A DNA stretch of 64,000 bases, from positions 8,770 through 72,769 of the forward strand of contig DAHUYN010000009.1 of the NCBI GenBank assembly GCA_027315165.1, given 5' to 3'. This document shows, piece by piece, positions 6,695 to 42,974 of the stretch. The stretch is from Thermoplasmata archaeon (GTDB lineage: Archaea > Thermoplasmatota > Thermoplasmata > Lutacidiplasmatales > UBA184). Position 1 is the first letter of the stretch; each line of letters begins with the position of its first letter. The notes under the pieces were generated by a model. The model saw nothing but the letters and a program-made list of their open reading frames with translations, was not told where the DNA came from and did not search any database. A program made the translations under genes and the position numbers.

Positions 6695-6724
6695 GGAGGG
6701 GCCGGCTCGGGCGCCTTCGTCCTT

Positions 6725-8022: not shown

Positions 8023-8143
8023 ACGAGAATGTAGGCCAAGCAGAAAGGGGCGAAGTTGAGTCCAACGGCGTGCTGCGTCAGGCTGTGCCTAAACGGCTGA
8101 GATCGTGACGGAGGCCCCTCGTCCTCATCGCGAGGAGATTGTC

Positions 8144-8815: not shown

Positions 8816-8873
8816 GTAGTCTCTCGACGCTTTATCGTTGATTACGTGGTCGCCCTGGCCGGAGAGAACCGGA

Positions 8874-9398: not shown

Positions 9399-9742
9399 TG
9401 TCGGCTGGTGCTGTCAATCCCCCTACCTCCTGGGCCCGTCTGGCATTTCGGTGGCTCCAATCCCAGCCCTTCGAGCAAGCGTCGACGGCTCTCACCGTCA
9501 GCCATGATCGGGAAGGCAGAGGGGGTCTTGGGTCCCGCCGGAAGTGCTAACACCTCCTGGCGACGAGGCGCGGACTGCAGTCGAGGCGTAACCGACGAGC
9601 AGACTCAGGGCTTCAAGAGTGATTCAACGCGGTGATGCGCAAAGTGCGCCTCTGTTTCGAGGCGCGCTGTCTGGGATCTCCGACACCCTACGGGGTCCTC
9701 CCGACCGAAGGAGCAATGCGGTAGAAGTGGGTCTGGGGCTCG

Positions 9743-9940
9743 GTGAGCGGCGTCGTACGCCTTGACCAGACCGTTGGCCTGGGACCCAACGAGGAGCAGG
9801 ACTTCGGCCCGATTCCGTACTATAATGGCTGGAAGCTGCTGTTGAGTAGCTCTGGTACGGTCCGCCGCTACCTCGGTCTATACGATCTGGCCGAGTACCA
9901 ACGACTTCGGGTAACCCTCACTACTTTGGCGGAACCCTGA
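9743..9940 (+). CDS. Small hypothetical protein or gene fragment
   Basis: 65-aa ORF with protein-like composition and no recognised motif. Confidence 0.3.
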   Translation: MSGVVRLDQTVGLGPNEEQDFGPIPYYNGWKLLLSSSGTVRRYLGLYDLAEYQRLRVTLTTLAEP

Positions 9941-10064
9941 CTCGGTCGACGAGAGCACGCGACGCGTTCAGTCACTGGGACGCCCGCGTTGTGTCTGGCC
10001 GTTGTCGAATGCCCCTTCCTCGGCGGCCGGAGCCTTTACTCCGGCCTTCCGTTGACCGGAGGGC

Positions 10065-17966: not shown

Positions 17967-18076
17967 CGACGCGGCCTTACCCCAGGCGTAGATGGCCCCT
18001 TCGCCGCGCGGCCGTCCGCGAAATGTCATGCACGATTGACGGCGGCCCCAAATCTCCCCTGCCCCCCGTACCCGTC

Positions 18077-21000
18077 GTGCTCGTCCCCTCCCGTCGACTG
18101 GCCGCGATCATGTTCACCGACATGGTGGGCTACGCGCGGATCACCGAGCACGACGAGGCTCGGGCTCTCTCCCTCGTCCACGAGCAGGAGCGCCTTCTGC
18201 GGCCTCTCTTCGAGAAGCACCGGGGGCGCGTCGTCAAGACGACGGGGGATGGATTCCTCGTCGAGTTCGACAGTGCGCTCGACGCGACGGTCTGCTCGCT
18301 CGAGGCGCGCGACCGCCTCCGGGTCCACAATCGCGGCCACCCGGACGCCCGTATCGAGACCCGCATCGGCATCCACGTCGGAGACGTCGTCGAGGAGGGC
18401 GGGGACGTCTTCGGTGACGCGGTGAACGTCGCTTCCCGGGTCGAGCCCCTCGCCGACGCGGGCGGGGTCTGCGTGAGCCAGGCCGTCTACGAGCAGGTCG
18501 CGAACAAGGTCGATACGAGGTTCCGGCGCCTCGACCGGGCCGCGATGAAGAACATCGACTTCCCGTGGGCCGTCTACCGGCTCGAGACGCGGCAGGACGA
18601 GCCGGGGATCCCCATCGACGCGCGCGTGTCGCTCCCCCTGGTCGAGCGCGAGAAGGACCTCGCTCGGCTTCGGGAGGCGAGCGAGCGGCTCGCGGCGGGC
18701 GAGGGCGGCGTCCTGCTCGTGACCGGCGAGGCCGGCATCGGAAAGACGCGCCTCCTTCGAGAGCTCGGCCGCCTCTCCGCCGAGGTGGGGATGCTCGTGG
18801 CGGTCGGCCACGCCCACGAGGGCGAGTTCGAGCCCCCGCTCACCGTGTGGGTCGAGGCCCTCCGCACGCTCGTCGGGGAGCTCTCCCCGTCCGAGCTGAT
18901 GCAGGATGTCGGCCTCAACGCCTTCGTGGTCGGCCGCTACGTTCCCGAGCTGGTCCTCCGTCTCGGGGGCGCCCCCGCGGCGCCCGAGGTCGAGCCCGAG
19001 CCGTTCGTCCTCTTCGGCGCGGTGACGAAGCTCCTCGCGAACGCCTCTCGCCGCCGACCGCTCCTCCTGTTCCTCGAGGACCTCCAGTGGGCCGACGAGG
19101 TCTCGCTCCGCCTCCTCGAGTTCGTCGTGCGGAACACGCTCGACGAGCGCCTCCTGTGCATCGGCAGCTATCGGAGCGAGGAGTTCGAGCGCGGCGGCCG
19201 TCTGCCGGCGACGGTCCTCGAGCTGAGCCGCACCCGACCGTTGGGTCAGCTCGAGGTCGGCCCGCTCAGCGAGGCGGGCGTGGCGACGCTCTTGGCGTCG
19301 GCGCTCGGCACCGAGCAGGTCGCCGCCCCGTTGACGGCCCTGGTCCACGAGCGGACGGGCGGCAACCCCCTGTTCGTCGACGAGCTCGCCTGGGCGCTCA
19401 AGAACGCCGGAAGGATCCGGGTCGAGGGCGGCCGGGCGACCCTGACCGAGGGGCCTGTGCAGCTCCCGCAGACGGTGCAGCCGCTCATCGAGCGGCGCGT
19501 TCGCAGCCTGTCGCCCGGCGCTCGCGAGCTCCTCCGGACGGCGAGCGTCCTCGGCGCTCGCTTCGACGCGGGCACTCTCGAGGCCGTCGCGGGCCTCCCC
19601 CGCCCGGAGTTCCTCGACTCGGTCGAGGAGGCGCTGCGGGCGGGGATCCTCCGGGAGCGGCCGGCGGAGGCGGGGGCCTCGCTGACCTTCGCCGATGCGC
19701 GGCTGTGCGAGCACCTCTACACGACGGTCAGCTTCCTGCGCCGACGTGCGCTACACAGCGACATCGCCCGCGCGCTCGAGGCCTCGGGGGCCTCGGCCGA
19801 TCAGCTCGCCTACCACTACGACCGGGCGCGGCAGCCCGCGGAGGCGTCGGTCCACTTCGAGCGCGCCGGGGACGAGGCGCTCGCCCTCGGCGACTACCAC
19901 CGGGCGACGGAGCGCTTCGCGCGCGGCCTCGCCGACTGCCCGGAGCGGGAACGGGAGGCCCGCCGGCGCCTCGGCGTGAAGCTCGGCCGCTCGCTGCAGG
20001 AGGTCGGACGGTACCCGGAGGCGCTCGAGGCGCTCCTCGAGGCCCGACGCGCGGTCGATCGCCCGGCGGACGACGTGCCGATCGCGGTGTGGCTCTCGGC
20101 CGTCCGGCTGCGCCAGGGCCGCTTTGACGAGTCCCGCGCGGAGATGGAGTCCGCGCTGCGGACCCTCGGGGAGGCGACGACCCCGGAGGCGGCGGATGCG
20201 TGGAGCGGCTGGGCGGTCCTGCTCTGCAGCAACGGCGAGGTCGACGCGGCGATCGCCGCGGGGCAGCGCACCCTCGCGCTGTCGCGCCAGTTGCAGCGGC
20301 CCGAGCTGGTCTCGCAGGCGCTGAACAACCTCGGCTTCGCCTACACGAGCGCGTGCCGGTGGGACGACGCGGTCCGGTGCGTGACCGAGCGCCTCGAGAG
20401 CGCGGACGAGGGGGTCCGACCGTTCGAGTCGGCGGTGACCCTCCTCGATGCCGCGGGGGCGTACGGCGGGATCCTCGCCGAGTTCCCGACGGCCCTCGCC
20501 TACTACGACCGCGCCATCGATCGATTCCGCGCGATGGGCATCCACTCCTCGGAGGTCTATGCGAGGCTCGGCCGCGCGGGGCTCCTCGTCTTCCTCGGCC
20601 GGCTCGAGGAGGCCGAGCGAGAGATCGCCGAAGGGCTCCGGCGGGCCGCCGACCTCAGGATCGAGTGGGCCCGCGCCTACTACGCCCTGCACGCCGCGGA
20701 GATCGAGTGGCAGCGGGGCGACCTCGACGCCGCCGCGGAGCGCCTGCGCCGGCTCTTGAGCGACCTCCCGGTCGAGGTGCAGAGCCGGGGCCACCTCGAG
20801 CTGGAGGCCCACCACCAGCTCGCCCTCGTGCTCGCCGCCGAAGGGGACCGAGAGGCGGCCCGGGAGGAGATCCGACCCTGGTGGGGGACGCCGGACCCCC
20901 ATCGTTGCGGTCACTGCGGCGAGTTCACGAGCTACGTGGCGGCCTGGATCGAGGCCGTCGAACCGGGCGGGGACCCCCGGGTCTTCGACGAGGCGGTCGC

Positions 21001-21295
21001 CTACGCGATGCGCCGGGGGACTCCGATGGGCCGGGCGATGCTCGCCGTGCCGAGGGCGATGTGGGCCCGTCACCACGGGGCGCCGAGCGAGGCGGCGCTC
21101 GTCGAAGCCCAGGCGTTCCTGCACGACCGCGGGGTCTCGACGCTGCTGGCCGACACGCTCGCGGAGCACGCGCGCACCCTCGAGGCGCTCGGCGATGCGG
21201 CGGCCGCCGCCTCGCGGGCCCGCGAGAGCGCCGAGCTCTACGAGCGGGTCGGGTCCCCTCGCCGGGCCGCCGAGCTCCGGGGTTCCGATGCCTGA
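18077..21295 (+). CDS. Class III nucleotide cyclase - STAND (AAA_16) NTPase - TPR protein
   Basis: Cyclase: FTDMVGY, VKTTGDGF, DVFGDAVNVASR. NTPase: Walker A GEAGIGKT, Walker B EDLQWAD, GGNPLF. TPR-like helices follow. Start is uncertain (ORF open from 18023). Confidence 0.9.
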   Translation: MLVPSRRLAAIMFTDMVGYARITEHDEARALSLVHEQERLLRPLFEKHRGRVVKTTGDGFLVEFDSALDATVCSLEARDRLRVHNRGHPDARIETRIGIHVGDVVEEGGDVFGDAVNVASRVEPLADAGGVCVSQAVYEQVANKVDTRFRRLDRAAMKNIDFPWAVYRLETRQDEPGIPIDARVSLPLVEREKDLARLREASERLAAGEGGVLLVTGEAGIGKTRLLRELGRLSAEVGMLVAVGHAHEGEFEPPLTVWVEALRTLVGELSPSELMQDVGLNAFVVGRYVPELVLRLGGAPAAPEVEPEPFVLFGAVTKLLANASRRRPLLLFLEDLQWADEVSLRLLEFVVRNTLDERLLCIGSYRSEEFERGGRLPATVLELSRTRPLGQLEVGPLSEAGVATLLASALGTEQVAAPLTALVHERTGGNPLFVDELAWALKNAGRIRVEGGRATLTEGPVQLPQTVQPLIERRVRSLSPGARELLRTASVLGARFDAGTLEAVAGLPRPEFLDSVEEALRAGILRERPAEAGASLTFADARLCEHLYTTVSFLRRRALHSDIARALEASGASADQLAYHYDRARQPAEASVHFERAGDEALALGDYHRATERFARGLADCPEREREARRRLGVKLGRSLQEVGRYPEALEALLEARRAVDRPADDVPIAVWLSAVRLRQGRFDESRAEMESALRTLGEATTPEAADAWSGWAVLLCSNGEVDAAIAAGQRTLALSRQLQRPELVSQALNNLGFAYTSACRWDDAVRCVTERLESADEGVRPFESAVTLLDAAGAYGGILAEFPTALAYYDRAIDRFRAMGIHSSEVYARLGRAGLLVFLGRLEEAEREIAEGLRRAADLRIEWARAYYALHAAEIEWQRGDLDAAAERLRRLLSDLPVEVQSRGHLELEAHHQLALVLAAEGDREAAREEIRPWWGTPDPHRCGHCGEFTSYVAAWIEAVEPGGDPRVFDEAVAYAMRRGTPMGRAMLAVPRAMWARHHGAPSEAALVEAQAFLHDRGVSTLLADTLAEHARTLEALGDAAAAASRARESAELYERVGSPRRAAELRGSDA

Positions 21296-21367: not shown

Positions 21368-22150
21368 GTGCCGTGGGACGTGACGCCCGGGGCCCGGGGT
21401 CGGCGCCGCGCCCGTCTGAGGGGGGGGACAAGCGCGGCAGCGCGCCCGTCCCGCGCCCGACGCCCTCCGGACCGCTCGCTCGTGGAGATCCGATTCAAGG
21501 GCGGCTCGGTCGCACGATGGATCGAGGAGCTCCAGGCGCGGTGGAACGCGAGCGTCCGTCTCCACGTCTGCCGGCCCCTCGACTCGGAGCACGCGAGGAT
21601 CCTCCGTCTCTTCGAGGTCGACTCCCCTCCGGCCCACATGGGCGAGGTCTGGGAGTACCTCCTCGAGCAGGTCGGTCCCGAGAACGCGGCGGTGACGCGC
21701 ATCGCCCCGAACCGGCTCATGGTCTGGACCTCGGCCCCGATCCCTCGGCTCTGTTCGGCGGTCTTCGAGGCGGGAGCGGTCTGCACGAGCTGCCCGTACC
21801 TCCCGCAGGGGCCCCACTCGGACGCCGAGGGATGGGGGCTGCTCGTCCCCGACGCGGCGAACGCGCAGATCCCCCTCGATGCGATGACGCGTCCCGGGCG
21901 CCCTCCGCCGACGGTCCTTCGCATCGGCCGGTATCAGTCGACCGGCGCGCTGACCCCGCGTCAAGAGCGCGCGATCGACGAGGCGCTCCGGCTCGGCTAC
22001 TTCGCCCACCCGAGGCGGGCGGGGCTCGCCGAGGTCGCCGAGGCGCTCGGCGTCAGCCGGTCGACGGCGATGGAGATCCTGCGGCGGGCGGTGTTCAAGC
22101 TCGCGCAGCAGCGCAAGTCGGCGACGGTCGCGACGACCGGGCTCACCTAG
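21368..22150 (+). CDS. HTH_10 (bacterio-opsin activator-type) transcription regulator
   Basis: C-terminal LTPRQERAIDEALRLGYFAHPRRAGLAEVAEALGVSRST...LRRA. The start may be the GTG at 21482. Confidence 0.85.
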   Translation: MPWDVTPGARGRRRARLRGGTSAAARPSRARRPPDRSLVEIRFKGGSVARWIEELQARWNASVRLHVCRPLDSEHARILRLFEVDSPPAHMGEVWEYLLEQVGPENAAVTRIAPNRLMVWTSAPIPRLCSAVFEAGAVCTSCPYLPQGPHSDAEGWGLLVPDAANAQIPLDAMTRPGRPPPTVLRIGRYQSTGALTPRQERAIDEALRLGYFAHPRRAGLAEVAEALGVSRSTAMEILRRAVFKLAQQRKSATVATTGLT

Positions 22151-23174
22151 CCCGGGGCACGACGACGGTCCGGAGCCCCTCCCCACGGCGGAGGGCGTCG
22201 GCCGCCTCGCCGATCCGTTCGAGCGGGACCGTCCCCGTGACGACCGGGTCGAGCTGGACCCGGCCCCGTCGGACGAGCTCGACGATGCGGGGGTAGTCGA
22301 CGGGCCGGCAGCCGAGCGAGCCCATCATCGTGTACTCGAGGAACATCACCTTCTGCACGGGGACCTCCGCCGGGCGGTCGCTGTAGCCGACCAGGCAGAT
22401 GCGCCCGCCCCGGGCGACCGCAGAGAACGCCATCCCGATCGTCTTGGGCGAGCCGACCGCCTCGAACACGACATCGGCTCCGCCCGGCAGGAGGGCCCGG
22501 ACCGCCTTTCCGAACTCCGGGGCGCTCTGGGGGTTGAGCGTCTCCGCGGCGCCGAGGCGCCGCGCCACCTCGAGCTTCGCGTCGGACAGGTCGACGGCGA
22601 GCACGTGTGCGCCGGCGAGGTGGGCGAACTGGACGACGTTGACGCCGACGCCCCCGCAGCCGATCACGACGACGGTCTCGCCCCCGAGCACGCGCGCCCG
22701 GCGGACCACGGCGTGGTACGGCGTCGAGAGCGCGTCCGCGATCACCGCCCCCTTGACGAGGTCGACCTCGTCGGGCAGCTCGACGAGAAGGTCCGCGGGC
22801 GCGACGACGGCCTCCGCGAACCCTCCGTCCGTGTGGTTGCCGAACATCACCATCGAGGAGCAGATGTTCCCCCGACCCGAGCGGCAGAGCGCGCATCGCC
22901 CGCAGGGCAGCACGGCCGGCAGCACGACGCGCCGTCCCAGCACCGACGGGTCCACGCGAGGGCCGTGCTCGGCGACACGGCCCGAGATCTCGTGCCCGAG
23001 CACGAGCGGGGGTGGCTTCGCCGTCGGCACGCCGTGGTCGAGGTAGTGCAGGTCGGTGTGGCAGAAGCCGCAGCCCGCGACGTCGACGACGACCTCGCCG
23101 GGTCCCGCCACCGGGCGCGGAACGTCCCGCACCACGAGCTCCCGGGCCCCCTTCTCCAGGACCGCTGCGCGCAT
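22143..23174 (-). CDS. had: Zn-dependent dehydrogenase, probable 6-hydroxycyclohex-1-ene-1-carbonyl-CoA dehydrogenase
   Basis: GCGFCHTDLHY..GVPT..P.PLVLGHEISG, PAVLPCGRCALC, ADALSTPY, GSLGCRP. Context fits the pathway. Confidence 0.78.
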   Translation of the reverse strand: MRAAVLEKGARELVVRDVPRPVAGPGEVVVDVAGCGFCHTDLHYLDHGVPTAKPPPLVLGHEISGRVAEHGPRVDPSVLGRRVVLPAVLPCGRCALCRSGRGNICSSMVMFGNHTDGGFAEAVVAPADLLVELPDEVDLVKGAVIADALSTPYHAVVRRARVLGGETVVVIGCGGVGVNVVQFAHLAGAHVLAVDLSDAKLEVARRLGAAETLNPQSAPEFGKAVRALLPGGADVVFEAVGSPKTIGMAFSAVARGGRICLVGYSDRPAEVPVQKVMFLEYTMMGSLGCRPVDYPRIVELVRRGRVQLDPVVTGTVPLERIGEAADALRRGEGLRTVVVPRAR

Positions 23175-23187
23175 CGGAGTCCCTCCC

Positions 23188-24432
23188 TCACTCGAAGAGG
23201 ATCGACTCGACGAACGTCTCGAGCTGCAGTCGGGACTGCTCGTAGGCGCTCGAGCGCTCCTCGAACTCGAGATGGAGGTACGGCACCTTCGCCTCGTCGA
23301 GCGCGCGTCGGTAGAGCACGACGTCCTCGAGCGCCGGCTCGCAGAACTTCGCCGTGAGGAAGATGACCCCCTGCGCCCCGCTCCGCCGGACCCTCTCGAG
23401 GACGGCCGCCCCCTTCGTCGTCGGCGTCGCGCGGACGCCGAGGTCCACCGGGTTCTCGACGTAGGCCCGCGCGAGCTCGGTGAGCGGGTCCCCCGTGCTC
23501 GGCACCTCGCGGTACCAGCGCAGGAGCATCTGCAGCTCGTCCTCGACGACGTAGCAGCCGACCTCCTCGAGAAGGTCGAGGAGGTCGAGGGTCGGCTGCT
23601 CGCAGAACGGACCCACGATCGCGACGCGGACGGAGTCCTTGCGGCTCCGGCTGCGCCCGTCGAGGGCGGAGAGGGCCTTTTGGAGGAGCTCGATGTGCCG
23701 CTCTCGCGGGAGGAAGTTGCCGACGCGGACGAGCAGGTAGGCCTCTGTCGCCGAGAGGACCCAGGGCTCCCGTCGCTTGCGTTCGACGAGCTCCCGGACG
23801 AGCGCGCGGTTCTCGTTGAACACCGAAAAGGAGTGCCGGAGGGCCTCCGGGGTCAGCGGTGTACCTCCCGCCGCCTCGAGCTGCCGGGCGAGCCGGCCGT
23901 ACTCGTGGGTGAGATACGGCACCGTCGCCTTCGAGGTGAAGTTCTGCGGCAGGTGGAGCATGTGCGTCGGGCGCCCGGGAAGGACACGGGAGAAGATCCC
24001 CTCGAGGTTGCGGCTCACATCGCAGATGTAGGGAAACACGAACGCCGAGAACGGGTCGAGCCGGCCCGTGAGGGCGAGCTCGAGCGTCGACTTGCTCACC
24101 GAGCAGAGGAAAGAGCCCAGGGGGGCGTCGGCCCGCGTGATGTCGATGCTCTCGCCGGCCCCCTGCACGAGCACCGGGAGCATGCCCATCGCGTGCGCGA
24201 TCTCCTGGGGCGTGTAGACGGGGAAGAAGGCGACCGCCTTCCGACCGGACCGGGTCCAGGCGCGGACCGTCGGGAACGTGGGGTCCTGGACGACCTCGCG
24301 CGCCCAGGCGACCATCTCCTCGACCGTGCCGAGCCGGGAGACCTCCGCAAGGTCGTCGGAGAGCTCCATCCCTCCCGCCGGCGCGGGCTCGGCGACGGGG
24401 GGCACCGCGTTGAGGGGGATCAGACGGGCCAT
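23188..24432 (-). CDS. bcrC: Benzoyl-CoA reductase subunit C-like (2-hydroxyacyl-CoA dehydratase family)
   Basis: PVYTPQEIAHAMGMLP, SFLCSVSKSTLEL, FPYICDVSRNL, GPFCEQP, KFCEPAL. Confidence 0.78.
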   Translation of the reverse strand: MARLIPLNAVPPVAEPAPAGGMELSDDLAEVSRLGTVEEMVAWAREVVQDPTFPTVRAWTRSGRKAVAFFPVYTPQEIAHAMGMLPVLVQGAGESIDITRADAPLGSFLCSVSKSTLELALTGRLDPFSAFVFPYICDVSRNLEGIFSRVLPGRPTHMLHLPQNFTSKATVPYLTHEYGRLARQLEAAGGTPLTPEALRHSFSVFNENRALVRELVERKRREPWVLSATEAYLLVRVGNFLPRERHIELLQKALSALDGRSRSRKDSVRVAIVGPFCEQPTLDLLDLLEEVGCYVVEDELQMLLRWYREVPSTGDPLTELARAYVENPVDLGVRATPTTKGAAVLERVRRSGAQGVIFLTAKFCEPALEDVVLYRRALDEAKVPYLHLEFEERSSAYEQSRLQLETFVESILFE

Positions 24433-24433
24433 C

Positions 24434-25243
24434 CTAGGCTCCGACCGTCGGCACGCCCGCGGCGACCTTCTGCGCCCGGCTGTGTCCGAGCAGCGCGGCC
24501 CCGATCGCGGCCGCGTAGTGGGCCTCGGGCCGCACGTTGATCGGCAGCTTCGTGGTCCCCTCGAGGGCGCGGACCATCCCCGGGTTCGCGACGAGCCCTC
24601 CGACGAGCGTGACCTCGGGCCGAAGGCCGACGTAGGTCATCAGCGACTGCGCGCGCTGCGCGAGCGAGAGGAAGATCCCCATCAGGATGTCCTGGACCGG
24701 GATCCCCTCCGCGACGTTGTTGATGATCTCGGTCTCGGCCAGGACCGCGCAGACGCTCGAGATCGTCTTCGGTTGCGTCGCCGCGAGCGCGCGTGGGCCC
24801 ATCTCCTCGAGCGGCACCTGCAGGTACTTCGAGCACCGCTCGACGAACCGTCCGGCGCCGGCGGCGCACTTCTCGTTCATCTTGAACTTCGCCACGCGCC
24901 CGGTCTCGGTGACGGAGATGGCGCGCGACGACTGGGCGCCGACGTCGAGGACCAAGCGGGTCCCGGGGAAGAGGAAGACCGCGCCGCGGGCCGACGAGGT
25001 GATGTCGCTCACCTGGAGCTGGCGCTCCGGGAACGAGTAGCGGCCGAAGCCGGTCGTGCAGACGTAGGCGACGTCGCCCTCGAGCAGGTTCTCCTCCTCG
25101 GCCATCTGTTCGAGGAGCGCGTGGGCGACGCCGGTCGGGTTGCCTCGGGTCGGACGGCTCGCCGAGCGCAGGAGCCGCCTCCCGTCCTCGAGGAGGACCC
25201 CTTTCGTGGTCCCGCTGCCGATGTCGAGCCCGGCGGTGATCAT
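24434..25243 (-). CDS. bcrD: Benzoyl-CoA reductase ATPase subunit D-like (BcrAD/BadFG activase)
   Basis: ATG at 25243. GLDIGSGTTK, DVGAQ, KCAAGAG, ISSVCAVLAETE (BcrD-like). Confidence 0.75.
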   Translation of the reverse strand: MITAGLDIGSGTTKGVLLEDGRRLLRSASRPTRGNPTGVAHALLEQMAEEENLLEGDVAYVCTTGFGRYSFPERQLQVSDITSSARGAVFLFPGTRLVLDVGAQSSRAISVTETGRVAKFKMNEKCAAGAGRFVERCSKYLQVPLEEMGPRALAATQPKTISSVCAVLAETEIINNVAEGIPVQDILMGIFLSLAQRAQSLMTYVGLRPEVTLVGGLVANPGMVRALEGTTKLPINVRPEAHYAAAIGAALLGHSRAQKVAAGVPTVGA

Positions 25244-26028
25244 GCGGCGGACCCCCCGAGGCGGTCCCGTCCGATCAGGGCCGCGCCGACCGCGCCGAGG
25301 TACTGCGAGAGCGGGCTCACGTTCACGGGCAGCCCGAGCCGCCGCCGCATCGCGAGGACCATCCCCTCGTTCCGCGAGACCCCGCCCGTGAAGGTCACCT
25401 CCGCCTCGACGCCGACGCGCTGCATCAGCGAGAAGGAGCGGCTGACGATGCTCTCGTGGAGGCCCGCGAGGATGTCCTTCGCCTCCTTGCCTCTCGAGAC
25501 GAACGACGTCACCTCGGACTCGGCGAAGACCGTGCACGTGCTCGAGATCTTGACGGGCCGACGGGCCTGGAGCGAGAGCGGGCCGATCTCGCCGACATCG
25601 AAGCCGAGGGCGTTCGCGCAGACGTCGAGGAACCGCCCCGTTCCGGCGGCGCACTTGTCGTTCATCGCGAAATCGACGACCTCGCCCTTCGGGCTGACCT
25701 TGATCGCCTTCGTGTCCTGCCCGCCGATGTCGACGACGAGGCGTGTGCCCGGGAACAGGAAGTGCGCCCCGCGTGCGTGGCAGGAGATCTCGGTCACGGT
25801 CAGCTGGCCGAAGTAGACCTTGTAGCGCCCGTAGCCGGTACCGGTCGTGAACGCGACCTCCGAGCGCGAGACCCCGGCCTCGGCGAGGGCGAGCTCGAGG
25901 GCCCTCTCCGCGTCCTTGACGATGTCGACGCCGACGGGGTTGAGCGAGGTGCCGAGGATCTTGTCGCCGTCCAAGAGCACGCACTTCGCGGTCGTCGACC
26001 CGATGTCGACACCGGCGACGATCGTCAT
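25240..26028 (-). CDS. bcrA: Benzoyl-CoA reductase ATPase subunit A-like (compact activase)
   Basis: GVDIGSTTAK, TGYGR, EISCHARGA, DIGGQDTK, MNDKCAAGTGRFL, SSTCTVFAESE. Confidence 0.72.
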   Translation of the reverse strand: MTIVAGVDIGSTTAKCVLLDGDKILGTSLNPVGVDIVKDAERALELALAEAGVSRSEVAFTTGTGYGRYKVYFGQLTVTEISCHARGAHFLFPGTRLVVDIGGQDTKAIKVSPKGEVVDFAMNDKCAAGTGRFLDVCANALGFDVGEIGPLSLQARRPVKISSTCTVFAESEVTSFVSRGKEAKDILAGLHESIVSRSFSLMQRVGVEAEVTFTGGVSRNEGMVLAMRRRLGLPVNVSPLSQYLGAVGAALIGRDRLGGSAA

Positions 26029-27317
26029 CGGGCCCCCCGGGCGGCCGCGGCCCGCCGCCCTTCGAGCGACTCGAAGAACGCGTCCATCCGGTTCTTGACC
26101 TGGGCCGGGGCGAAGTACCGAGGATCCTCGTGGTCCGATTCGAGGTAGAGCGTCGGGACGTCGCGCTCTCGGATGAGCCAGTCGCGGAGGTCACCCTGGC
26201 CGGCGGTGAACGACCGACACGACTTGATCCCGTGGATCAGCACGGCGTCGGCCTCGAAGTCCTTGAGATACCGCTCGATGAGCTGTCGTCGGACCGGCCA
26301 GGACTGGTTGACGTAGGCGCCGAGGCTGTACTCGGCGATGCTCTCGAACGGGCGGCTGGGGTCGTGCAGGAAGCCGGCATCGAAGAGGCCCCCCACCTTC
26401 GGATACGTCGCGGCGACCGAGACCGCCCCCCACTTGCGGAAGAAGTCCCAGAAGGTCCGGTAGTTCGTGTACGGTGGCACCCCCTCGACGACGAGTCGGA
26501 ACCTCTCCTCCGGCACGGCGAACTCGCCGGCCTTCACGCGCTGCTCGACCTCCTCGTTGACGTGCTCGTAGAACGCGGTGGCCTCTCGAGTCCCTCGGAG
26601 GACGTTGATCGGGAACATGTAGAAGACCGCCTCGAAGTACGCCTCGATCGGGGACGGGCGGTGCCGCCCCGCGTTGAGGTAGCGGACCCACCCCTCCTCG
26701 GCGCGCCGGCTCTCGGCGAGGACCCGCTTGAGCTCGTTGATGTCGAAGTCGCGGCCCGTGCGCTTCTCGAGGTCGTGGACGAACTCCCAGAGCTGCGCGA
26801 CGAGGTACTCGACGTCCTCCTTGCGGATCGCCTCCTCGCGCTGGTACGGCACGTCGTACGTGACCATCGGGGCCCCGTACGTCTCGGAGAGCGCCTCCCA
26901 CCACTTCACGTAGACGTAGCAGCCGGAGAAGCTGCAGACGAGCAGGTCGGGACGCGGGATCTTGCCGAAGGAGGTCGTGCCTCCGCGAGCCTGGAGCCCG
27001 AGGTCGTTCTTGACGTAGCCGCAGACGTCGAGCCCGTATCCCATCGACTCGGCGTGGAGGATGTTGTCGAGCGACTGGTGCTTGATCGCGCAGTTGAGCG
27101 CGACGATCTCGGGAAAGACCACCTCGTAGCCGAACGCCCGGACGATCTCGGTGAGGTTTCCCCCGACGAGCATGTAGGCGACGGGACGCTCCGGTCCGCC
27201 GGCCCCCTGGAGCCGCGCGTAGTACTCCTCGACGAGCCTGCGCTGACGGTCGCGCCCGCTCTCGAGGGCATCGGGAGGCCCCGGTGGCGCCACGGCCGCA
27301 GACGCCTCAGTCGGCAT
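26025..27317 (-). CDS. bcrB: Benzoyl-CoA reductase subunit B-like
   Basis: GNLTE...PE, DVCGYVKNDLG, IPRPDLL..SFSGC...KW.E, YPKVGG, IKSCRSFTAGQ, ESD..DPRYF. Confidence 0.8.
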   Translation of the reverse strand: MPTEASAAVAPPGPPDALESGRDRQRRLVEEYYARLQGAGGPERPVAYMLVGGNLTEIVRAFGYEVVFPEIVALNCAIKHQSLDNILHAESMGYGLDVCGYVKNDLGLQARGGTTSFGKIPRPDLLVCSFSGCYVYVKWWEALSETYGAPMVTYDVPYQREEAIRKEDVEYLVAQLWEFVHDLEKRTGRDFDINELKRVLAESRRAEEGWVRYLNAGRHRPSPIEAYFEAVFYMFPINVLRGTREATAFYEHVNEEVEQRVKAGEFAVPEERFRLVVEGVPPYTNYRTFWDFFRKWGAVSVAATYPKVGGLFDAGFLHDPSRPFESIAEYSLGAYVNQSWPVRRQLIERYLKDFEADAVLIHGIKSCRSFTAGQGDLRDWLIRERDVPTLYLESDHEDPRYFAPAQVKNRMDAFFESLEGRRAAAARGAR

Positions 27318-28431
27318 CGCGCGAACCTCCGGCCGGCGACAGGGCGCCGCCGCAGACCCCGCAGTACGCGAACTTCTCCGGAAGGTTCTTGGCGCCGCAG
27401 GACGGGCAGGCCCGTAACGGGGGGCCGTGGAAGTACTCGACCCCGGTGCCTTCCGCGAGCTCCGTCCTTAGCCCCGCGACGTTCGCCTTCCGCTTCTCGA
27501 CGAAGGCGTTCATCCCCTCGAGCGGCTCCCGGTTCGCGAAGTGGAGCGTGAGCCAGTCGCGGGCGTGGCCGATCGTGCTGTGCCAACCGAGCTCCTTCCA
27601 GAAGTTGACCTGCTGCTTCGTGTACCGCAGGCACTCGGGGAACATCCCGAGAAGCCGCTCGGCCAGTCCGTCGACCTCGGCGTCGAGGGGGCCGAGGTCG
27701 AGCGAGTAGCCGTCGCTCCCCTTCGCGGCCGCGGCGATCGCGGCGCTCGTCGGCTCGCTGAGAAGCTCACCGTCGTGGCGGACGCTCGGCGCCACCCGGG
27801 AGACCAGGCCCCACGCGAGGGCCTGCGCCGCGGGGACGCGCTCGTTGAGCAGAAGCATCTGGCGTGCCCGGCGGTCCCCGACCGCGAGGGGCAGCCACTG
27901 GGTCGCGCCACCCGCCGCCACCGAGCCGACACCGACCCCGACCTGGCCGAGGTAGATGTGCGACGCGGCGACCGAGAGATCGCACGCCAGGTGGAGCTCG
28001 TTTCCGCCGCCGACCGTGATCCCGTTGAGGCGCGCGATCGTGGGCTTCCCGCACTTGAGAAGCCCCTCGACAACGCTCTGGAAGTGACCCATGTACTCCC
28101 AGTACTCGTGCGGGCGCCGGGTGTACCGGTGGGCGTACTCCTTGACGTCCCCGCCCGTGCAGAAGGCCCGGGTGCCGGAGCCCGTGAGCACGAGGACACC
28201 CACGCGGTCGTCCCTCGTCGCCTCGCCGATCGCCTGGGCGAGCTCGATGAGCGTCTCCGTCGTGTAGGCGTTCAGGGCGTCGGGACGGTCGAGGGTGATC
28301 CGCGCCACGTGGCCCTTCCTCTCGTAGCGAAGGTCGTGGTAGGCCGAGGTCTTGGAGGTACCGGAACGACCGGTGCCGGTCGGCGAGGCTTCGGGGCGTG
28401 GCGGTCTCGGCCGACCTTCGTTGCGGGCCAT
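27307..28431 (-). CDS. oah: Crotonase-family ring-opening hydrolase, probable 6-oxocyclohex-1-ene-1-carbonyl-CoA hydrolase, with C-terminal zinc ribbon
   Basis: NAYTT, AFCTGGDVKEYA..Y...P.EY..YM, GGGNE, GS.AAGGATQWLP, Oah-type insertion ending DL..LD. Confidence 0.75.
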   Translation of the reverse strand: MARNEGRPRPPRPEASPTGTGRSGTSKTSAYHDLRYERKGHVARITLDRPDALNAYTTETLIELAQAIGEATRDDRVGVLVLTGSGTRAFCTGGDVKEYAHRYTRRPHEYWEYMGHFQSVVEGLLKCGKPTIARLNGITVGGGNELHLACDLSVAASHIYLGQVGVGVGSVAAGGATQWLPLAVGDRRARQMLLLNERVPAAQALAWGLVSRVAPSVRHDGELLSEPTSAAIAAAAKGSDGYSLDLGPLDAEVDGLAERLLGMFPECLRYTKQQVNFWKELGWHSTIGHARDWLTLHFANREPLEGMNAFVEKRKANVAGLRTELAEGTGVEYFHGPPLRACPSCGAKNLPEKFAYCGVCGGALSPAGGSRDAD

Positions 28432-28595
28432 CGGCGTCTCCGGGCCGGCATGCGGCCCGGCGACCAAGCGGCTTACCCCGAACCGGTACGGGGTGGCCCG
28501 GCGCCCGCGCGCGGGGGTCGGGTGGGGGCCCGCGGCGTTGCCGGGGCGCTCGGCCGTGAGATAGTCAGATGAACCCGGGCCGAGTGCGGGCGAGC

Positions 28596-29378
28596 ATGCC
28601 GGTCCGATTCGAGGTCGAGGCGCGGGTCGCCCGGATCACGCTCGACCGACCGGAGGCGCTCAACGCGATCGACCCCGAGATGCAGGAGCAGCTCGTGGCG
28701 GCATGGCGCCGGTTCCGCGACGACGACGGGCTCCACGTCGCGGTCCTCGAGGGCGCCGGACCCAGGGCGTTCTGCGCCGGCGTCGACGTGAAGCGAATGG
28801 GGGAGCTCTATGACGTCGGAGCCGCCTCGAGCCGTCGCGAGCTCTGGAACCGCGCGCCGGGGCTCGGGGGGATCACCCGGAACCTCGACCCCGGCAAGCC
28901 CGTGATCGCGGCGATCCACGGCTTCTGCGTCGGCGGCGGCCTCGAGCTCGCTCTCGCCTGCGACCTCCGCTACGCGAGCGAGGACGCCACCTTCGCCTTT
29001 CCCGAGGTGAAGTGGGCGATCATTCCCGGTCAGGGCGGCACGCAGCGGCTTCCGCGCGTCGTGGCGCCGAACCTCGCCCTCGAGATGATCCTCTCAACGG
29101 AGCCGATCTCGGCCGCGCGGGCCGCTGAGATCGGCCTCGTCAACCGGACCGTGCCGCGTGCGGAGCTTCTCCCCACCGCCCTCGCGATGGCCCACCGTCT
29201 CGCCGAGCTTCCGACCCGTGCGGTCCGGGTCGCGAGGGAGGCGGTGCTGCGGGGGCTCGACCTTCCGCTCTCGGACGCTCTCCGGCTCGAACAGGACCTG
29301 GCCGACCCGCTCCGCGACAGCACGGAGAACCGCGCGGCGCGAGCCCGGTTCGGCGTCAAGGGGCCTCCGCCGAGCTGA
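28596..29378 (+). CDS. Enoyl-CoA hydratase/isomerase
   Basis: AFCAGVD, GGGLELALACD, PEVKW..PGQGGTQRLPR. Both catalytic Glu are present. Confidence 0.9.
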   Translation: MPVRFEVEARVARITLDRPEALNAIDPEMQEQLVAAWRRFRDDDGLHVAVLEGAGPRAFCAGVDVKRMGELYDVGAASSRRELWNRAPGLGGITRNLDPGKPVIAAIHGFCVGGGLELALACDLRYASEDATFAFPEVKWAIIPGQGGTQRLPRVVAPNLALEMILSTEPISAARAAEIGLVNRTVPRAELLPTALAMAHRLAELPTRAVRVAREAVLRGLDLPLSDALRLEQDLADPLRDSTENRAARARFGVKGPPPS

Positions 29379-29421: not shown

Positions 29422-31041
29422 TCAGCCCGGCGCCCCCGCGTGAGGGCCCGCGGAGGAGGCGGGTCCCGGGGCGCGACGGGAGGCGATCACGTCGTCGATG
29501 CGCAGGATCATCGCGGCGGCCTCGGTCGCTCCCTGGATCGCCTGTCGACCGACCCGGATCGGCTCGACCGCGACCTCGCGCATGTCGGCGATCCGTGCGT
29601 TGAGCACGTCCACGCCCGCATCGCGCTCGCCCGAGGCATGACGTCGCCTCAGCTCGATCAGCGCGTCGAGGGTGCTCATGCCCGCGTTCTCGGCGAGCGT
29701 CGACGGGATCACCTCGAGCGCGTCCGCGAACCGCTCGACGGCGATCTGCTCCCGACCTCCGATGCGGGCGGCGAGGTCGCGGAGCCGGAGGCTGAGCTCG
29801 ATGGCCGCAGCCCCCGCACCGGTGACAACGAGGCCATCCTCGATCGCTCCGCCGACGGTCGACAGCGCGTCGACGAGCGAGCGCTCGACCTCGGCGAGGA
29901 CGTGCTCCGAGCCACCGCGAAGGAGCAGGGAGACGGACCGGGCCCCTTCGCAGCCGGTCACGAACGTGAGCCGGTCCTCACCGATGTGCCTCTCCTCGAC
30001 GCGCGCGGCGGTCCCGAGGTCGCTCGACCGGAGCTCCTCGGGCCGCGAGACGATCTCGGCGCCGGTCGCCTTGGCGAGCAGTTCGAGGTCCGCTCGCTTC
30101 GCCCGTCGGACGGCGTAGATACCGGCCCGGGCGAAGTGCTCGGCCGCGAGGTCGTCGATCCCCTTCTCGGCGACGAGCACGTTGGCTCCGGTGCGCCGCA
30201 CCGAGTCGACCATCTCGGCGACGAGGCGCTCCTCCTCGCTCAGGAACGACTGCATCTGGTCCGGCGCGGTGATCCGGATCTCGGCACTGAGTTCCGTCTT
30301 TCGCACCTCGACGGCCCCGGCGAGCAGCGCGAGGTGGGCGGGCGCGACCGTCCGCGGCATCGCGCTGTGCGCTACCTCGAGCTCGAGGATGTGCCCTTCG
30401 AGGAGTTCGCTGTGGGAGATGTCCCCGCCGGTCCGACGGACGATCTGGACGTTCCGCTTGTCGAACGTGAAACGACCCTCGTGCTCCTCGAGCACCGCCT
30501 CGACGGCGCCGACCGCGAGGTCGGCGAGCTGCTCGCGGTAGGAGGCGACCCCCTTCGAGATCATCGACGTCATGGCGATCCGGCGCAGAAGGTCGCGGTC
30601 GCCCCGGTGGACGGGACGCCCTACCTCGCGGAGCTGCTCGATCGCTCGCTGGGCCGCGAGCCGGTAGCCCTGTGTGATCACCGTCGGATGGATATGCTCC
30701 TCGAGCAGCTCCTCGGCCTTGTGGAGGAGCTCGCCGGCCAGGATGACGGAGGTCTTGGTCCCGTCGCCGCATTCGAGGTCCTGCGACTTCGCGAGCTCGG
30801 CGAGCATCTTCGCCGCCGGGTGCTGGATCTCCATCTCCTGGACGATCGTCGCGCCGTCGTTCGTGATCACGACGTCGCCGGCCGAGTCGACGAGCATCTT
30901 GTCCATTCCCTTGGGGCCGAGCGTGGAGCGGATCGACTCGGCGAGGGCGCGCGCCGCGCGTATGTTCTCTCGTTGGGCGTCCTTCCCTTCGGCTCGCTCC
31001 GTTCCTTCCCGGAGCAGGAGCACCGGCGTTCCCGCGAGCAT
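29422..31041 (-). CDS. ths: Thermosome (group II chaperonin) subunit
   Basis: [31 protein letters not shown]. Confidence 0.95.
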
Positions 31042-31413
31042 CGTCTCCCTCCTCCTGGAGGACGCGCGTCACACCATAGGCGTCGGGTGAAGTCGGCTTG
31101 ACCCGGGATCCCGCGTGGCCCGGGACCTGCGCTATGGCCCCGGGATCGGACTCGAGGTCCTCCGTGCCGACCCAGGGATCCGAGCCGGTACGGAGCTCGC
31201 CCTCACACCGGTCCCCGACCGACCCTTGCCGAGGCAGAAATCCACCGTCCCTATCGCGCGCGAGCCGTGCGCATGGTAGCGAAGACGGCTTGAGCCCCCT
31301 GCTTGTGCGTGGCGCGCCACCATGCCTCGGGCCGCAGCACGCTTCCGACCTACCGACAGGCCGTGCCGGGCCCCCGGTGCCTCACGTCGCCCGACGGCGA
31401 ACGGGGGGGAGGG

Positions 31414-33003
31414 ATGACCTCTCGGGGACGGGTGCTCGTCCTCGACGGGGAGTCCGGAGAGAGCGCTCTGGCCGTCGTGCGCTCGCTGGGCCGCAGGGGG
31501 TACGAGGTCGAGCTCGGGTTCTCGGAGGGCGCGCCACGCCGGGCCGCGGTCTCTCGATACGTCGCTCGGGCGCGCATCTACCCGGAGGCGACGCATGCGA
31601 CCGAGCGGTTCCACGAGACGCTCCTGCGCTGGGCGCCGACGGTCGGGGCCGTGATCCCGATCAAGGAGCCCACGCTCCTCGCGACGGCCTCGATCCGCAG
31701 CGAGCTCGAGTCGGCAGGAGCTCGTGTGCCGATCGCCGACCACGACACGCTCCGGACCGCGACGGACAAGGTCGCGATGCTCGAGCTCGCCCGGCGGGCG
31801 GGGCTCCGGGTGCCCCGATCCCGAATCGTGGCGAGCCTCGAGGCCGCGCGCGGGGCCTCCGGAGAGCTCGGGGTCCCCGTCGTGATGAAGTCGTCCACGG
31901 AGATCGGACTCCTGCCCGTCGAGCGTCACTTCCTCGTCTCCGACCTGGCGTCACCGACGTTCGTGACGGAGTTCGACCGGCTCTCTCGGTTCGGGCCGGT
32001 GGTCCTCCAGGAGTACATCGTCGGTCAGGGGGCGGGGATCGCCCTGCTCTACAACCGTCGCTCGGAGCTCCTCGCGTACTCTGGGCACCGGAGGAGGTTC
32101 GAGCAGATCTCCGACGGAGGTCCGAGCGTTCTCGCGCGCACCGACGTGCACGCGGAGGCGCTCGTCCAGTCACGTCGCCTCCTCGAGTCCCTGCCGTGGC
32201 AGGGGCTCGCCCTGGTCGAGTTCCGGATCGACGGTGCGGGGCGACCCGTGTACATGGAGGTGAATCCGCGGGTCTGGGGGACGCTCCCCCTCGCCGTGGA
32301 CTCCGGGGTGGATTTTCCGAGCCTCCTGCTCGAACGGTTCGACGGGCCCGCCCCGCCGGTCCCGCTCGGTCCCCGGCGTCGTCGGGGATACCTCTCCCTC
32401 GAGGCGCTCATCACGTCGCGTGGTGCCCCGCGTGAGAAGCGCCCGCGCCTGAGCCGCTTCCTTCTCGAGCTCGCACGGAGCTCCCGGGGCCTGTCGGTGC
32501 GGGAGTTCCAGGGACACGACCCTGCCCCGATGGTCGAGGAGTTCTTCCACGTCCTCCGGGCGCGTGCGACGCAGGGCCGGGTGGCGCGCGTAGACCGCCT
32601 GCTCTTCGGCCCGCCGGTCGACTACGCCGACCTCTACCGACGGGGCGTGCGCACCGTCGTCGACCTGCGGGAGCCACGTGAGGTCGGCTCGAGGCCCCTA
32701 CCGGTCCCGCCGGGGCTCACACGTCGGGCCTTTCCGATCGTCGACGACACGGGGGTCCCGCCCGAACGGTTCCGCGAGCTGATCGAGACGCTCTCGCGCG
32801 CCCTCCGCGAAGGCGGGGTCTACGTGCACTGCCGGCAGGGAAAGGGCCGCGCCCCGATGACGGCCGTCGGCTGGCTCGTCTCAAACGGCGTCGGTCTCGA
32901 GGAGGCGTTCGACCAGGTCTACCGAGCCCGCCCGTTCTCCTATCTCAACGCCGTCCAGCGGAACTCCGTCGTCGAGCTGGCGGGGTCGTTGCGCCCCGAC
33001 TAG
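31414..33003 (+). CDS. ATP-grasp ligase fused to a dual-specificity/tyrosine phosphatase domain
   Basis: VLVLDG...ALAVVRSLG, DK, PVVMK, QEYI, EF, MEVNPRVWG. C-terminal VHCRQGKGRA (HCX5R). Confidence 0.85.
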   Translation: MTSRGRVLVLDGESGESALAVVRSLGRRGYEVELGFSEGAPRRAAVSRYVARARIYPEATHATERFHETLLRWAPTVGAVIPIKEPTLLATASIRSELESAGARVPIADHDTLRTATDKVAMLELARRAGLRVPRSRIVASLEAARGASGELGVPVVMKSSTEIGLLPVERHFLVSDLASPTFVTEFDRLSRFGPVVLQEYIVGQGAGIALLYNRRSELLAYSGHRRRFEQISDGGPSVLARTDVHAEALVQSRRLLESLPWQGLALVEFRIDGAGRPVYMEVNPRVWGTLPLAVDSGVDFPSLLLERFDGPAPPVPLGPRRRRGYLSLEALITSRGAPREKRPRLSRFLLELARSSRGLSVREFQGHDPAPMVEEFFHVLRARATQGRVARVDRLLFGPPVDYADLYRRGVRTVVDLREPREVGSRPLPVPPGLTRRAFPIVDDTGVPPERFRELIETLSRALREGGVYVHCRQGKGRAPMTAVGWLVSNGVGLEEAFDQVYRARPFSYLNAVQRNSVVELAGSLRPD

Positions 33004-42899: not shown

Positions 42900-42974
42900 C
42901 GTCGGAGGGAGCGTGGCCCCCCGGGTGGGTGACGCTGGGCCCGCCGCTGAACGCTGAACCGTGACGGGGGCGGG

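Follow-up and report, generated by a model that had tools for sequence, protein, structure and literature searches.

A putative class I benzoyl-CoA reductase-type operon with a zinc-ribbon crotonase in a Thermoplasmata archaeon

To our knowledge, nearly all biochemical evidence on the anaerobic degradation of aromatic rings comes from bacteria, and the one characterised archaeon, Ferroglobus placidus, uses a benzoyl-CoA reductase (BCR) of the Bzd type; bcrABCD genes have reportedly been counted in further surveys of archaeal metagenome-assembled genomes (MAGs). In this study, we analysed positions 21368-29378 of a 64,000-nt stretch, hereafter the window, of contig DAHUYN010000009.1 (GCA_027315165.1) from a Thermoplasmata archaeon. 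The results showed eight genes, of which six are intact, tightly coupled and on the minus strand (22143-28467) and two flank them on the plus strand. The six-gene operon probably encodes an ATP-dependent aryl-CoA ring reductase together with a ring-opening module.

The first gene of the operon (27307-28467, minus strand, as are the five that follow) encodes a 386-aa crotonase (ECH_1, 157.9 bits), a putative ring-opening hydrolase with a zinc-ribbon tail, CxxC...CxxC, at residues ~352-376 (27340-27414, minus strand). It is followed by the genes for the BcrB/MbdO-like beta or catalytic subunit (26025-27317; 430 aa, HGD-D), a short MbdQ/BcrA-like alpha ATPase subunit (25240-26028; 262 aa; BcrAD_BadFG, 236.6 bits), an MbdP/BcrD-like delta ATPase subunit (24434-25231; 265 aa; BcrAD_BadFG, 171.9 bits), whose start is an internal ATG of a longer open reading frame (ORF), and a BcrC/MbdN-like gamma subunit (23188-24432; 414 aa, HGD-D). 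The last gene (22143-23174) encodes a 343-aa Had-like zinc alcohol dehydrogenase (Zn-ADH). Counted from gene 1, the first two junctions are overlaps (11 and 4 nt) and the other three are gaps (8, 1 and 13 nt). On the plus strand, a generic crotonase that is a candidate hydratase (28569-29378; 269 aa; ECH_1, 188.7 bits) diverges from the operon across an intergenic region of 101 nt (28468-28568), and a 260-aa transcription regulator of the HTH_10 or bacterio-opsin-activator type (21368-22150; HTH_10, 62.5 bits, residues 195-246) is convergent with the Zn-ADH gene, their 3' ends overlapping by 8 nt. Judged by position only, the intergenic region presumably contains promoters for both the operon and the plus-strand crotonase; visual inspection of this spacer, which is very rich in G+C, showed no AT-rich TATA-like box.

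The G+C content of about 72% gives rise to many long spurious ORFs on both strands. The third-position G+C of the eight genes was 0.90-0.96 and the second-position G+C 0.43-0.58, as in the other called genes of the contig, indicating that these are real coding frames. Every family assignment was backed by Pfam and NCBIfam. The first-pass annotation, made from the DNA letters, had described six minus-strand genes with overlaps or gaps of no more than 13 nt, a flanking crotonase and an HTH_10 regulator, and all of these were found as described, with the gene families it had named and its sequence motifs present in the translations.

The window lies in a 90.6-kb contig of an assembly of 2.04 Mb in 61 contigs, which is 94.45% complete and 2.02% contaminated and has an even G+C content. 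The neighbouring genes encode a thermosome, an adenylate-cyclase/AAA_16/TPR protein, an MFS transporter, a GHMP kinase and a PALP enzyme. The operon was also found in MAG records bearing the title Thermoplasmata archaeon. The contig was thus judged archaeal and not chimeric, on the thermosome and HTH_10 genes, the even G+C content and the recurrence of the operon in Thermoplasmata MAGs. No RNA sequencing run holding the stretch was found; the runs that hold it were DNA only, labelled as soil and mine-drainage metagenome.

We compared the four predicted reductase subunits with NCBIfam models. The best match of the beta subunit was TIGR02260 (benz_CoA_red_B; 355.3 bits vs a cut-off of 486.55) and that of the gamma subunit was TIGR02263 (benz_CoA_red_C; 289.2 vs 421.15). 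Both ATPases matched the generic activase domain and scored below cut-off on their specific models: the delta subunit reached 171.2 on TIGR02261 (BcrD; cut-off 312.85), and the alpha subunit reached 198.4 on the BcrA model (cut-off 578), of which only positions 228-429 of 432 were matched. The Bzd-type models (TIGR03190-03192) gave 113 bits for BzdN, 101 for BzdO and 137-171 for BzdQ against cut-offs of 380-454, and the dehydratase models gave 177 for HadB (cut-off 750) and 197 for HadC (cut-off 700). The operon therefore encodes together two HGD-D proteins and two different BcrAD/BadFG ATPases, which is the four-subunit make-up of class I enzymes; the alpha and delta ATPases share 115 identical residues over 270 aligned columns.

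Among solved structures, the best relatives of all four subunits were those of 3-methylbenzoyl-CoA reductase (MBR), MbdONQP (PDB 9g87, 9gai). The beta subunit scored 229.5 bits with MbdO (9g87_A), 141 with HadB and 90 with BzdO, and the gamma subunit scored 296.4 bits with MbdN (9g87_B), 182 with HadC and 114 with BzdN. The alpha subunit matched MbdQ (9gai_D) at 305.9 bits and the delta subunit MbdP (9gai_C) at 192.3 bits. For the respective subunits, the Mbd matches outscored those to HadB/C, HgdC/HadI and BzdO/N. The likeness to Thauera and Rhodopseudomonas subunits proposed in the first-pass annotation therefore stood in so far as the subunits are nearest to Thauera-type Bcr and MbdONQP and far from Bzd and the dehydratases, although none of them reaches an equivalog cut-off.

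We then aligned the predicted catalytic residues. According to the available part of a study of BzdNOPQ (PMC11971306), the cluster ligands of BzdO are Cys95, Cys128 and Cys380, accompanied by a conserved Glu65. The results showed that C99, C133, C367 and E57 of the beta subunit align with these residues and that, across the BCR-like alignment, the three Cys are invariant and the Glu is nearly invariant. The dehydratases share the three Cys and the Glu, so these ligands are necessary without being discriminating. The beta subunit also carried all 10 of the 10 columns that separate BCR-like from HAD-like rows, a test that is partly circular in that the groups were defined by a tree containing this beta subunit. 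At the position of BzdO His131 it has a Tyr, and 30 of the 32 BCR-like rows have Tyr or Phe there. In the gamma subunit, five Cys align with Cys of MbdN, and one of the five is absent from HadC.

For the phylogeny of the beta subunit, an exhaustive search yielded 215 proteins at E ≤ 1e-30, and 20 full-length representatives were scanned against NCBIfam. Among these 20, the BcrB cut-off was passed only by P0124 (630 bits) and P0127 (815 bits), 14 scored best on BcrB but below its cut-off, and 6 scored best on HadB. Clades were labelled by NCBIfam equivalog scores and PDB matches. A quick tree of 119 rows, built from 106 of the 150 listed representatives (385-460 aa), 12 named proteins and this beta subunit, split 32 BcrB-like rows, this beta subunit included, from 87 HadB-like rows with a support of 100. 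The split was found again (100/100) in a careful tree of 76 rows, made of 28 P-numbered proteins, this beta subunit and 47 loci chosen for diversity from 80 related loci; the latter are the best 80 of at least 600 contig-scan matches, all MAG records, many of them cut by contig ends. These results placed the beta subunit with the BcrB superclade and away from the dehydratases of amino-acid fermentation.

In the 76-row tree, the beta subunit fell in a clade of 14 rows (100/99), all of them archaeal-labelled or unlabelled: eight are of the Thermoplasmata type, four are labelled Heimdall, Hodarchaeales or Thorarchaeota, and the other two Kariarchaeaceae and Methanobacteriota. Its sister group (99/97) consists of a locus titled Methanomassiliicoccales and one unlabelled representative, and the clade is separate both from the canonical BcrB clade (13 rows) and from the MbdO-like clade (5 rows). 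The MbdO-like representatives form a 100/99 clade of their own and scored 345 and 288 bits to 9g87_A, vs 229 for this beta subunit. Among the archaeal, canonical, MbdO-like and bacterial clades (Acidobacteriota, Planctomycetota, Bacteroidota and others), the branching order had no support. In the literature searched, no characterised member of the 14-row clade was found. The nearest homologues of the beta subunit, at 74-87% identity, are labelled Thermoplasmata wherever their source is named, and a tblastn search of plasmids gave eight records, all below 27% identity and either without annotation or labelled dehydratase family. By family, clade and ligands, the reductase is predicted to be a class I enzyme of the Thauera/MBR kind, and by the same comparisons it is placed outside the canonical BCR, MBR and Bzd groups. 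The proposal that the cluster had been assimilated with host-like codon usage held for the codon pattern only: the nearest relatives are all archaeal, which gives acquisition no support, and since the branching of the sister groups is unsupported, a gain from bacteria cannot be told from the tree.

We examined the gene order of the 80 related loci. A BcrC-like gene was present in 75 of them and two ATPase genes in 70, a Had-like gene (at least 35% identity) in 43 and an Oah-type or zinc-ribbon crotonase in 46, with 38 loci holding both of the last two. Of the 75 loci holding both B and C, 65 have the order gamma-beta-alpha-delta, and the order beta-alpha-delta-gamma was found in 10, namely nine of the Thermoplasmata clade and L056. 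A long BcrA was seen only in the 10 loci with more than 1700 nt between the start of BcrB and that of the ATPase match; nine of these were placed in the 76-row tree, all within the canonical BcrB clade. In loci of the L100 type, whose beta subunit goes with a TIGR02260-passing reference, Had (559.7), Oah (640.6) and Dch (382.2) all pass their equivalog cut-offs, and the order in L100 is had-oah-dch-C-B-A-D. The operon is thus a rearranged version of this canonical module, with each part replaced by a more distant relative. The conserved synteny is the strongest argument that the product of the reductase would be a cyclic enoyl-CoA, which would then be oxidised and opened.

The operon crotonase scored 192.5 bits on the Oah model TIGR03200 (cut-off 464.45), with the best stretch covering positions 39-224 of 360, and 148.5 and 147.9 bits on the BadI (TIGR03210) and MenB (TIGR01929) models, far below their cut-offs. 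Its C-terminal zinc ribbon matched Pfam DUF7577 at 25.9 bits, just under the cut-off of 28. The residue aligned with the Asp of the MenB SFDGG stretch, which we take to be catalytic, is an Ala. Across the 80 loci, two kinds of crotonase occupy this role: 26 proteins are of canonical-length Oah type (one of them, L105, a doubtful 640-aa ORF), about 20 of which share a C-terminal tail, and 20 are of the zinc-ribbon kind. The two Oah-type proteins tested passed the Oah cut-off (640.6 and 553.9 bits). Three bacterial zinc-ribbon crotonases that were tested scored 179-207 on Oah, 154-203 on BadI and 137-206 on two MenB models, and the bacterial zinc-ribbon relatives match the BadI and MenB models end to end. 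Members of the zinc-ribbon clade adjoin BCR-like genes.

In a crotonase tree of 106 rows, from which ORFs shorter than 200 aa or longer than 470 aa had been dropped, E. coli MenB, the zinc-ribbon proteins and canonical Oah formed one clade with a support of 99. A careful tree of 32 rows, including three proteins named BadI by the Prokaryotic Genome Annotation Pipeline (PGAP) from plasmids, recovered the whole Oah/MenB/BadI/zinc-ribbon subgroup (99/97), MenB with BadI (100/98), and the zinc-ribbon proteins with Oah (87/88). In the approximately unbiased (AU) test, holding the zinc-ribbon proteins with MenB and BadI gave a p of 0.209, so that this placement was not rejected. With this p value beside the 87/88 support, the operon crotonase is best described as a third lineage of the subgroup; the earlier label of Oah-like fits the subgroup, and goes too far if canonical Oah is meant. 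A grouping with MenB in place of Oah, which the first-pass annotation had named as refuting its reading, was thus neither recovered in the best tree nor rejected. Nothing linking a zinc ribbon with 6-oxocyclohex-1-ene-1-carbonyl-CoA was found in print. The closest cluster in the Atlas, an enoyl-CoA hydratase cluster without a name, has 2,976 members; its representative, at 319 aa, is as long as the bacterial zinc-ribbon crotonases, which is a lead only.

The best family of the Zn-ADH was dearomat_had (TIGR03201; 268 bits vs a cut-off of 338.65), 88 bits above the next family (179.6), and its best solved relatives were the 6-hydroxycyclohex-1-ene-1-carbonyl-CoA dehydrogenases 7quy and 7qul (194 bits). 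The description as a Had-like zinc dehydrogenase therefore agrees with both family and structures, though the Had cut-off is not reached. The plus-strand crotonase had no equivalog; its best model was EchA19 (194.6 vs a cut-off of 400), and Dch (TIGR03189) was not among its best 25 families. It forms its own clade in the 106-row tree, and nine Thermoplasmata loci keep a copy, 58-67% identical, at the corresponding divergent position. A homologue of the HTH_10 gene (37-44% identity) stands beside the cluster in 7 of the 80 loci, all of them Thermoplasmata.

The first-pass annotation had named BCR, Dch, Had and Oah as the parts of the benzoyl-CoA route. No Dch-type hydratase is encoded in the operon, where the gap between the gamma and Had genes is only 13 nt. 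In eight of the nine Thermoplasmata-clade loci holding both of these genes, a Dch-like crotonase lies between them; in the crotonase tree it is placed within the Dch part, and its best model is Dch (143.9 vs a cut-off of 292.5). The nearest relative, L029, also lacks the Dch-like gene.

Several further genes were observed beside related clusters. In bacterial loci L037, L038, L040, L044 and L103, a short-chain dehydrogenase/reductase (SDR; FabG-like, ~239 aa) directly follows the zinc-ribbon crotonase; the first three are titled Acidobacteriota/Terriglobia, and a Had-like Zn-dehydrogenase is also present in all of them except L103, in which none was detected. On two plasmids (L113, L114), a badI gene so named by PGAP adjoins an SDR gene and an enoyl-CoA hydratase gene. 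Hemerythrin genes were seen in L032, L035 and L044, and HcrA-like molybdenum enzymes beside the clusters of L056 and L103. In L051 and L098, two closely related Thermoplasmata MAGs, a two-subunit 2-oxoacid:ferredoxin oxidoreductase (OFOR) is encoded about 3-5 kb past Had; its orthologue in the present genome lies on contig C5, away from the operon, at 63-72% identity.

We searched the rest of the genome for parts of a pathway. The two HGD-D genes of the operon are the only ones in the genome. There are three AMP-forming ligases, namely an acetyl-CoA synthetase, a FadD-like ligase that adjoins an acyl-CoA dehydrogenase, a crotonase and a thiolase, and a PRK06155-like ligase; PaaK had no match in the genome. 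The genome also encodes one family III CoA-transferase, one UbiD, three OFORs, thiolases, seven crotonases, six acyl-CoA dehydrogenases and a haem-copper oxidase. According to the available part of PMC11971306, class I enzymes are usually found in facultative organisms, and the haem-copper oxidase fits such a lifestyle. A molybdenum enzyme on contig C60 (52561-55239; L110) scored 795 bits on TIGR03194, the alpha subunit of 4-hydroxybenzoyl-CoA reductase (cut-off 994.55), the next family reaching 500; its gene lies beside ArsR-, phosphatase- and arsenite-carrier-like genes, and no FAD subunit was seen there. We dropped it as support for the pathway because of this arsenic-resistance-like context and its status as a core gene of the genus.

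The distribution of the cluster was determined with a threshold of E ≤ 1e-80 for the beta subunit. The cluster was present in 47 of the 150 genomes of the genus, this one counted, and in 25 of the 53 that are at least 90% complete and at most 5% contaminated, whereas the HcrA-like molybdenum enzyme was present in 129 of the 150 and the PRK06155-like ligase in 138. Of 401 genomes sampled evenly across the class, 43 had a match, among them members of other families, whose copies are about 50% identical and fall in other clades. All of these tallies include the unpublished genome G019, and those of the molybdenum enzyme and the ligase also G158 and G159; without these genomes each count shifts by at most three, and nothing else reported here depends on them. 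The cluster is an accessory trait of the genus. In two congeners (G025, G032), the beta gene was found in two or three pieces, adjacent or separate, in different frames, reflecting either a pseudogene or assembly indel errors.

The operon was compared with the systems already described. It shares with Thauera-type BCR the four subunits, the best families of the beta and gamma subunits, the superclade, the three-Cys and Glu site and the linkage to a Had-type dehydrogenase and a ring hydrolase. It differs in that every score lies below the equivalog cut-off and that it belongs to a separate, all-archaeal clade. Thauera-type BCR has the order gamma-beta-alpha-delta and a long BcrA, whereas the operon has the order beta-alpha-delta-gamma and an alpha subunit without the long N-terminal part; the Thauera-type cluster carries canonical Oah and Dch, whereas the operon carries the zinc-ribbon crotonase, no Dch and no adjacent ferredoxin gene. 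MbdONQP likewise has two ATPases of about 265-273 aa and has five gamma-subunit Cys in common with the operon, but the MbdO-like clade excludes this beta subunit and the gene order differs. BzdNOPQ of Aromatoleum sp. CIB (PDB 8s02), as far as the available part of PMC11971306 describes it, belongs to the same radical enzyme family, and its three Cys and Glu align; the similarity is low (BzdO 90, BzdN 114 bits), and BzdO His131 is replaced by Tyr. The operon crotonase belongs to the same well-supported subgroup as Oah/BamA, BadI and MenB, with a zinc ribbon where Oah/BamA has its C-terminal tail. The departures from the known kind are the archaeal clade, the gene order, the short alpha subunit, the non-canonical hydrolase and the absence of a Dch-type gene at this locus.

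The presence of such genes in the phylum has been reported before. The available part of PMC9239135 already reports bcrABCD in Thermoplasmatota, in MAGs of 'Ca. Yaplasmales', and the novelty first ascribed to the present operon was therefore rated too high. BCR genes have also been described in Asgard MAGs, those of Lokiarchaeota being assigned to the Bzd class (bioRxiv 10.1101/763623, available part). Unlike the present analysis, the parts of these two reports that were available give no operon anatomy, zinc-ribbon crotonase or clade of the Thermoplasmatota genes. A benzene-enriched MAG of Thermoplasmatota lacked most of the genes for BCR and for the lower pathway, according to the available part of PMC10570749.

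The intact genes, their family and clade membership, the conserved metal ligands and the conserved synteny, all observed at this locus, make it most likely that the operon encodes an ATP-dependent aryl-CoA ring reductase and a ring-opening module acting on benzoyl-CoA or a close analogue, a reading to which we give a probability of about 0.65. Substrate, products, electron donor and regulation are assigned here by homology, and benzoyl-CoA would most likely be the substrate. In the proposed mechanism, reduced ferredoxin from one of the three OFORs would reduce a [4Fe-4S] cluster bridging the alpha/delta ATPase heterodimer, and ATP hydrolysis would drive the electron through the cluster of the gamma subunit to the three-Cys [4Fe-4S] cluster of the beta subunit. 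The beta subunit would then reduce the aromatic ring of the CoA thioester to a cyclic dienoyl-CoA. This product would be hydrated by a crotonase; with the Dch-like gene of related operons lacking here, the divergent plus-strand enzyme is the probable candidate. The Had-like Zn-ADH would oxidise the 6-hydroxy group, and the zinc-ribbon crotonase would open the ring, giving a CoA ester of the pimelyl type that could be degraded further by ordinary beta-oxidation. The HTH_10 protein probably regulates the operon.

Several results weigh against this reading. All four reductase subunits, the Had-like protein and the operon crotonase score below the curated equivalog cut-offs, and the crotonase is not a canonical Oah, having a zinc ribbon instead of the Oah C-terminal tail. 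The beta subunit belongs to a clade that stands apart from canonical BcrB and the MbdO-like proteins and for which the literature searched offered no characterised member; the substrate could thus be another one. The operon has neither the Dch-like gene, of which no close copy was found elsewhere in the genome (best 34% identity), nor a ferredoxin gene. On the benzoate-CoA ligase model, the three AMP-forming ligases all stay below the cut-off (239 vs 375.25), and no glutaryl-CoA dehydrogenase equivalog was found among the acyl-CoA dehydrogenases. The molybdenum enzyme and the PRK06155-like ligase belong to the core of the genus and do not co-vary with the cluster, and are thus uninformative on activation. 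The search for an aryl-CoA ligase, a ferredoxin and a lower pathway, as proposed in the first-pass annotation, accordingly yielded no ligase equivalog, two small ferredoxin-like ORFs elsewhere in the genome (in a crude gene set) and, for the lower part, only generic beta-oxidation.

The same machinery might act on another substrate or by another route, which we regard as possible but unlikely. The substrate might be a substituted aryl-CoA such as methyl-, hydroxy- or halo-benzoyl-CoA, as the short ATPases, which resemble those of 3-methylbenzoyl-CoA reductase in lacking the long BcrA form, and the sub-cut-off scores throughout could suggest. The route might instead be Rhodopseudomonas-like and need no Dch: the plus-strand crotonase would hydrate cyclohex-1-ene-1-carboxyl-CoA, the Zn-ADH would oxidise the product, and the zinc-ribbon crotonase would cleave it in the manner of BadI to pimelyl-CoA. 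Such a route is consistent with the lack of a Dch-like gene both here and in L029, with the nearly equal scores of the crotonase on Oah, BadI and MenB and the AU result for MenB and BadI, and with the SDR genes found beside the zinc-ribbon crotonase in Acidobacterial clusters and beside badI on plasmids. The best tree, however, joins the zinc-ribbon proteins to Oah and keeps MenB and BadI in a clade of their own, the dehydrogenase of the operon is a Had-like zinc-ADH and not a BadH-like SDR, and eight of the nine comparable Thermoplasmata operons do carry the Dch-like gene. That missing gene, the 13-nt gap in its place and the lack of a close paralogue could also mean that the module is decaying or incomplete in this genome, with an intact reductase, a lost hydratase step and no full ring-opening route. 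The patchy distribution of the cluster in the genus, the fragmented beta genes of the two congeners and the failure to find a dedicated ligase agree with such a loss. The six genes are nevertheless full-length and tightly coupled, with G+C of the coding type, one of the seven crotonases of the genome is kept beside the operon in nine relatives, and L029 is Dch-less too, so that this layout persists in more than one species; we consider decay rather improbable.

That the operon would encode a 2-hydroxyacyl-CoA dehydratase and activator of the kind used in amino-acid fermentation, and not a ring reductase, is suggested by the shared Pfam families (HGD-D, BcrAD_BadFG) and by the NCBI name of several relatives, '2-hydroxyacyl-CoA dehydratase family protein'. 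We judged this very improbable, given the 100/100 split of the beta subunit from the HadB-like proteins and the scores of the HadB and HadC models and structures well below those of Bcr and Mbd. The operon also has two different ATPase genes where such an activator would be one, its two HGD-D genes are the genome's only ones, and the linkage with Had-like and ring-hydrolase-type crotonase genes is conserved. The ring reductase and ring-opening module thus remains the reading that we prefer.

In the crotonase trees, canonical Oah lies on a long branch next to or inside the zinc-ribbon lineage. Taken together, the operon could represent an old, purely archaeal lineage of ATP-driven arene reductases shared with Heimdall- and Thor-labelled Asgard archaea, the zinc-ribbon crotonase a third, undescribed kind of alicyclic beta-keto-CoA hydrolase, possibly near the ancestor of Oah, and the pathway a Dch-less route unlike those of Thauera and Rhodopseudomonas; this combined scenario is speculative, and we think it doubtful that all its parts are right. 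Should the archaeal clade prove active, abundant Thermoplasmata of soils and sediments, along with the Asgard archaea that carry the sister genes, would take part in the anoxic turnover of lignin-derived and pollutant aromatics. The clade would offer a compact enzyme for study, with both ATPases short and a new gene order, and a putative ring hydrolase of the zinc-ribbon kind. The results open no long-standing question and mainly refine annotation, in that the presence of bcrABCD does not equal a complete canonical benzoyl-CoA pathway.

The remaining features of the window were also recorded. The thermosome gene (29422-31041) is a divergent paralogue, with 51-57% identity in 9 of 10 congeners and 70% identity to one copy in G144, and a second thermosome copy on another contig of the genome is 56% identical. 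We considered whether the thermosome gene travels with the operon and rejected this, since the 70% copy occurred in one of five BCR-positive and none of five BCR-negative congeners. Directly upstream of the HTH_10 gene, 18023-21295 encodes a 1090-aa protein combining an adenylate/guanylate cyclase, an AAA_16 ATPase and TPR, and 31303-33003 encodes an unusual 566-aa fusion of ATPgrasp_Ter with a dual-specificity/tyrosine phosphatase (Tc-R-P / PTP-SAK). A tRNA-Lys(CTT) gene (6724-6799) is followed by a phage-integrase-family gene (6919-8022), and the G+C content is 61.6% at 8001-10000 vs about 72% elsewhere; an element has probably integrated at this tRNA (6724-10000). Another gene of the phage-integrase family lies on the minus strand at 41871-42899, with a series of very small ORFs after it (44082-45674), and 41871-45700 may be a further mobile element or a remnant. 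Between 54000 and 64000, the G+C content falls to 63-67%, with large ORFs of lower third-position G+C, for example from 62843 onward.

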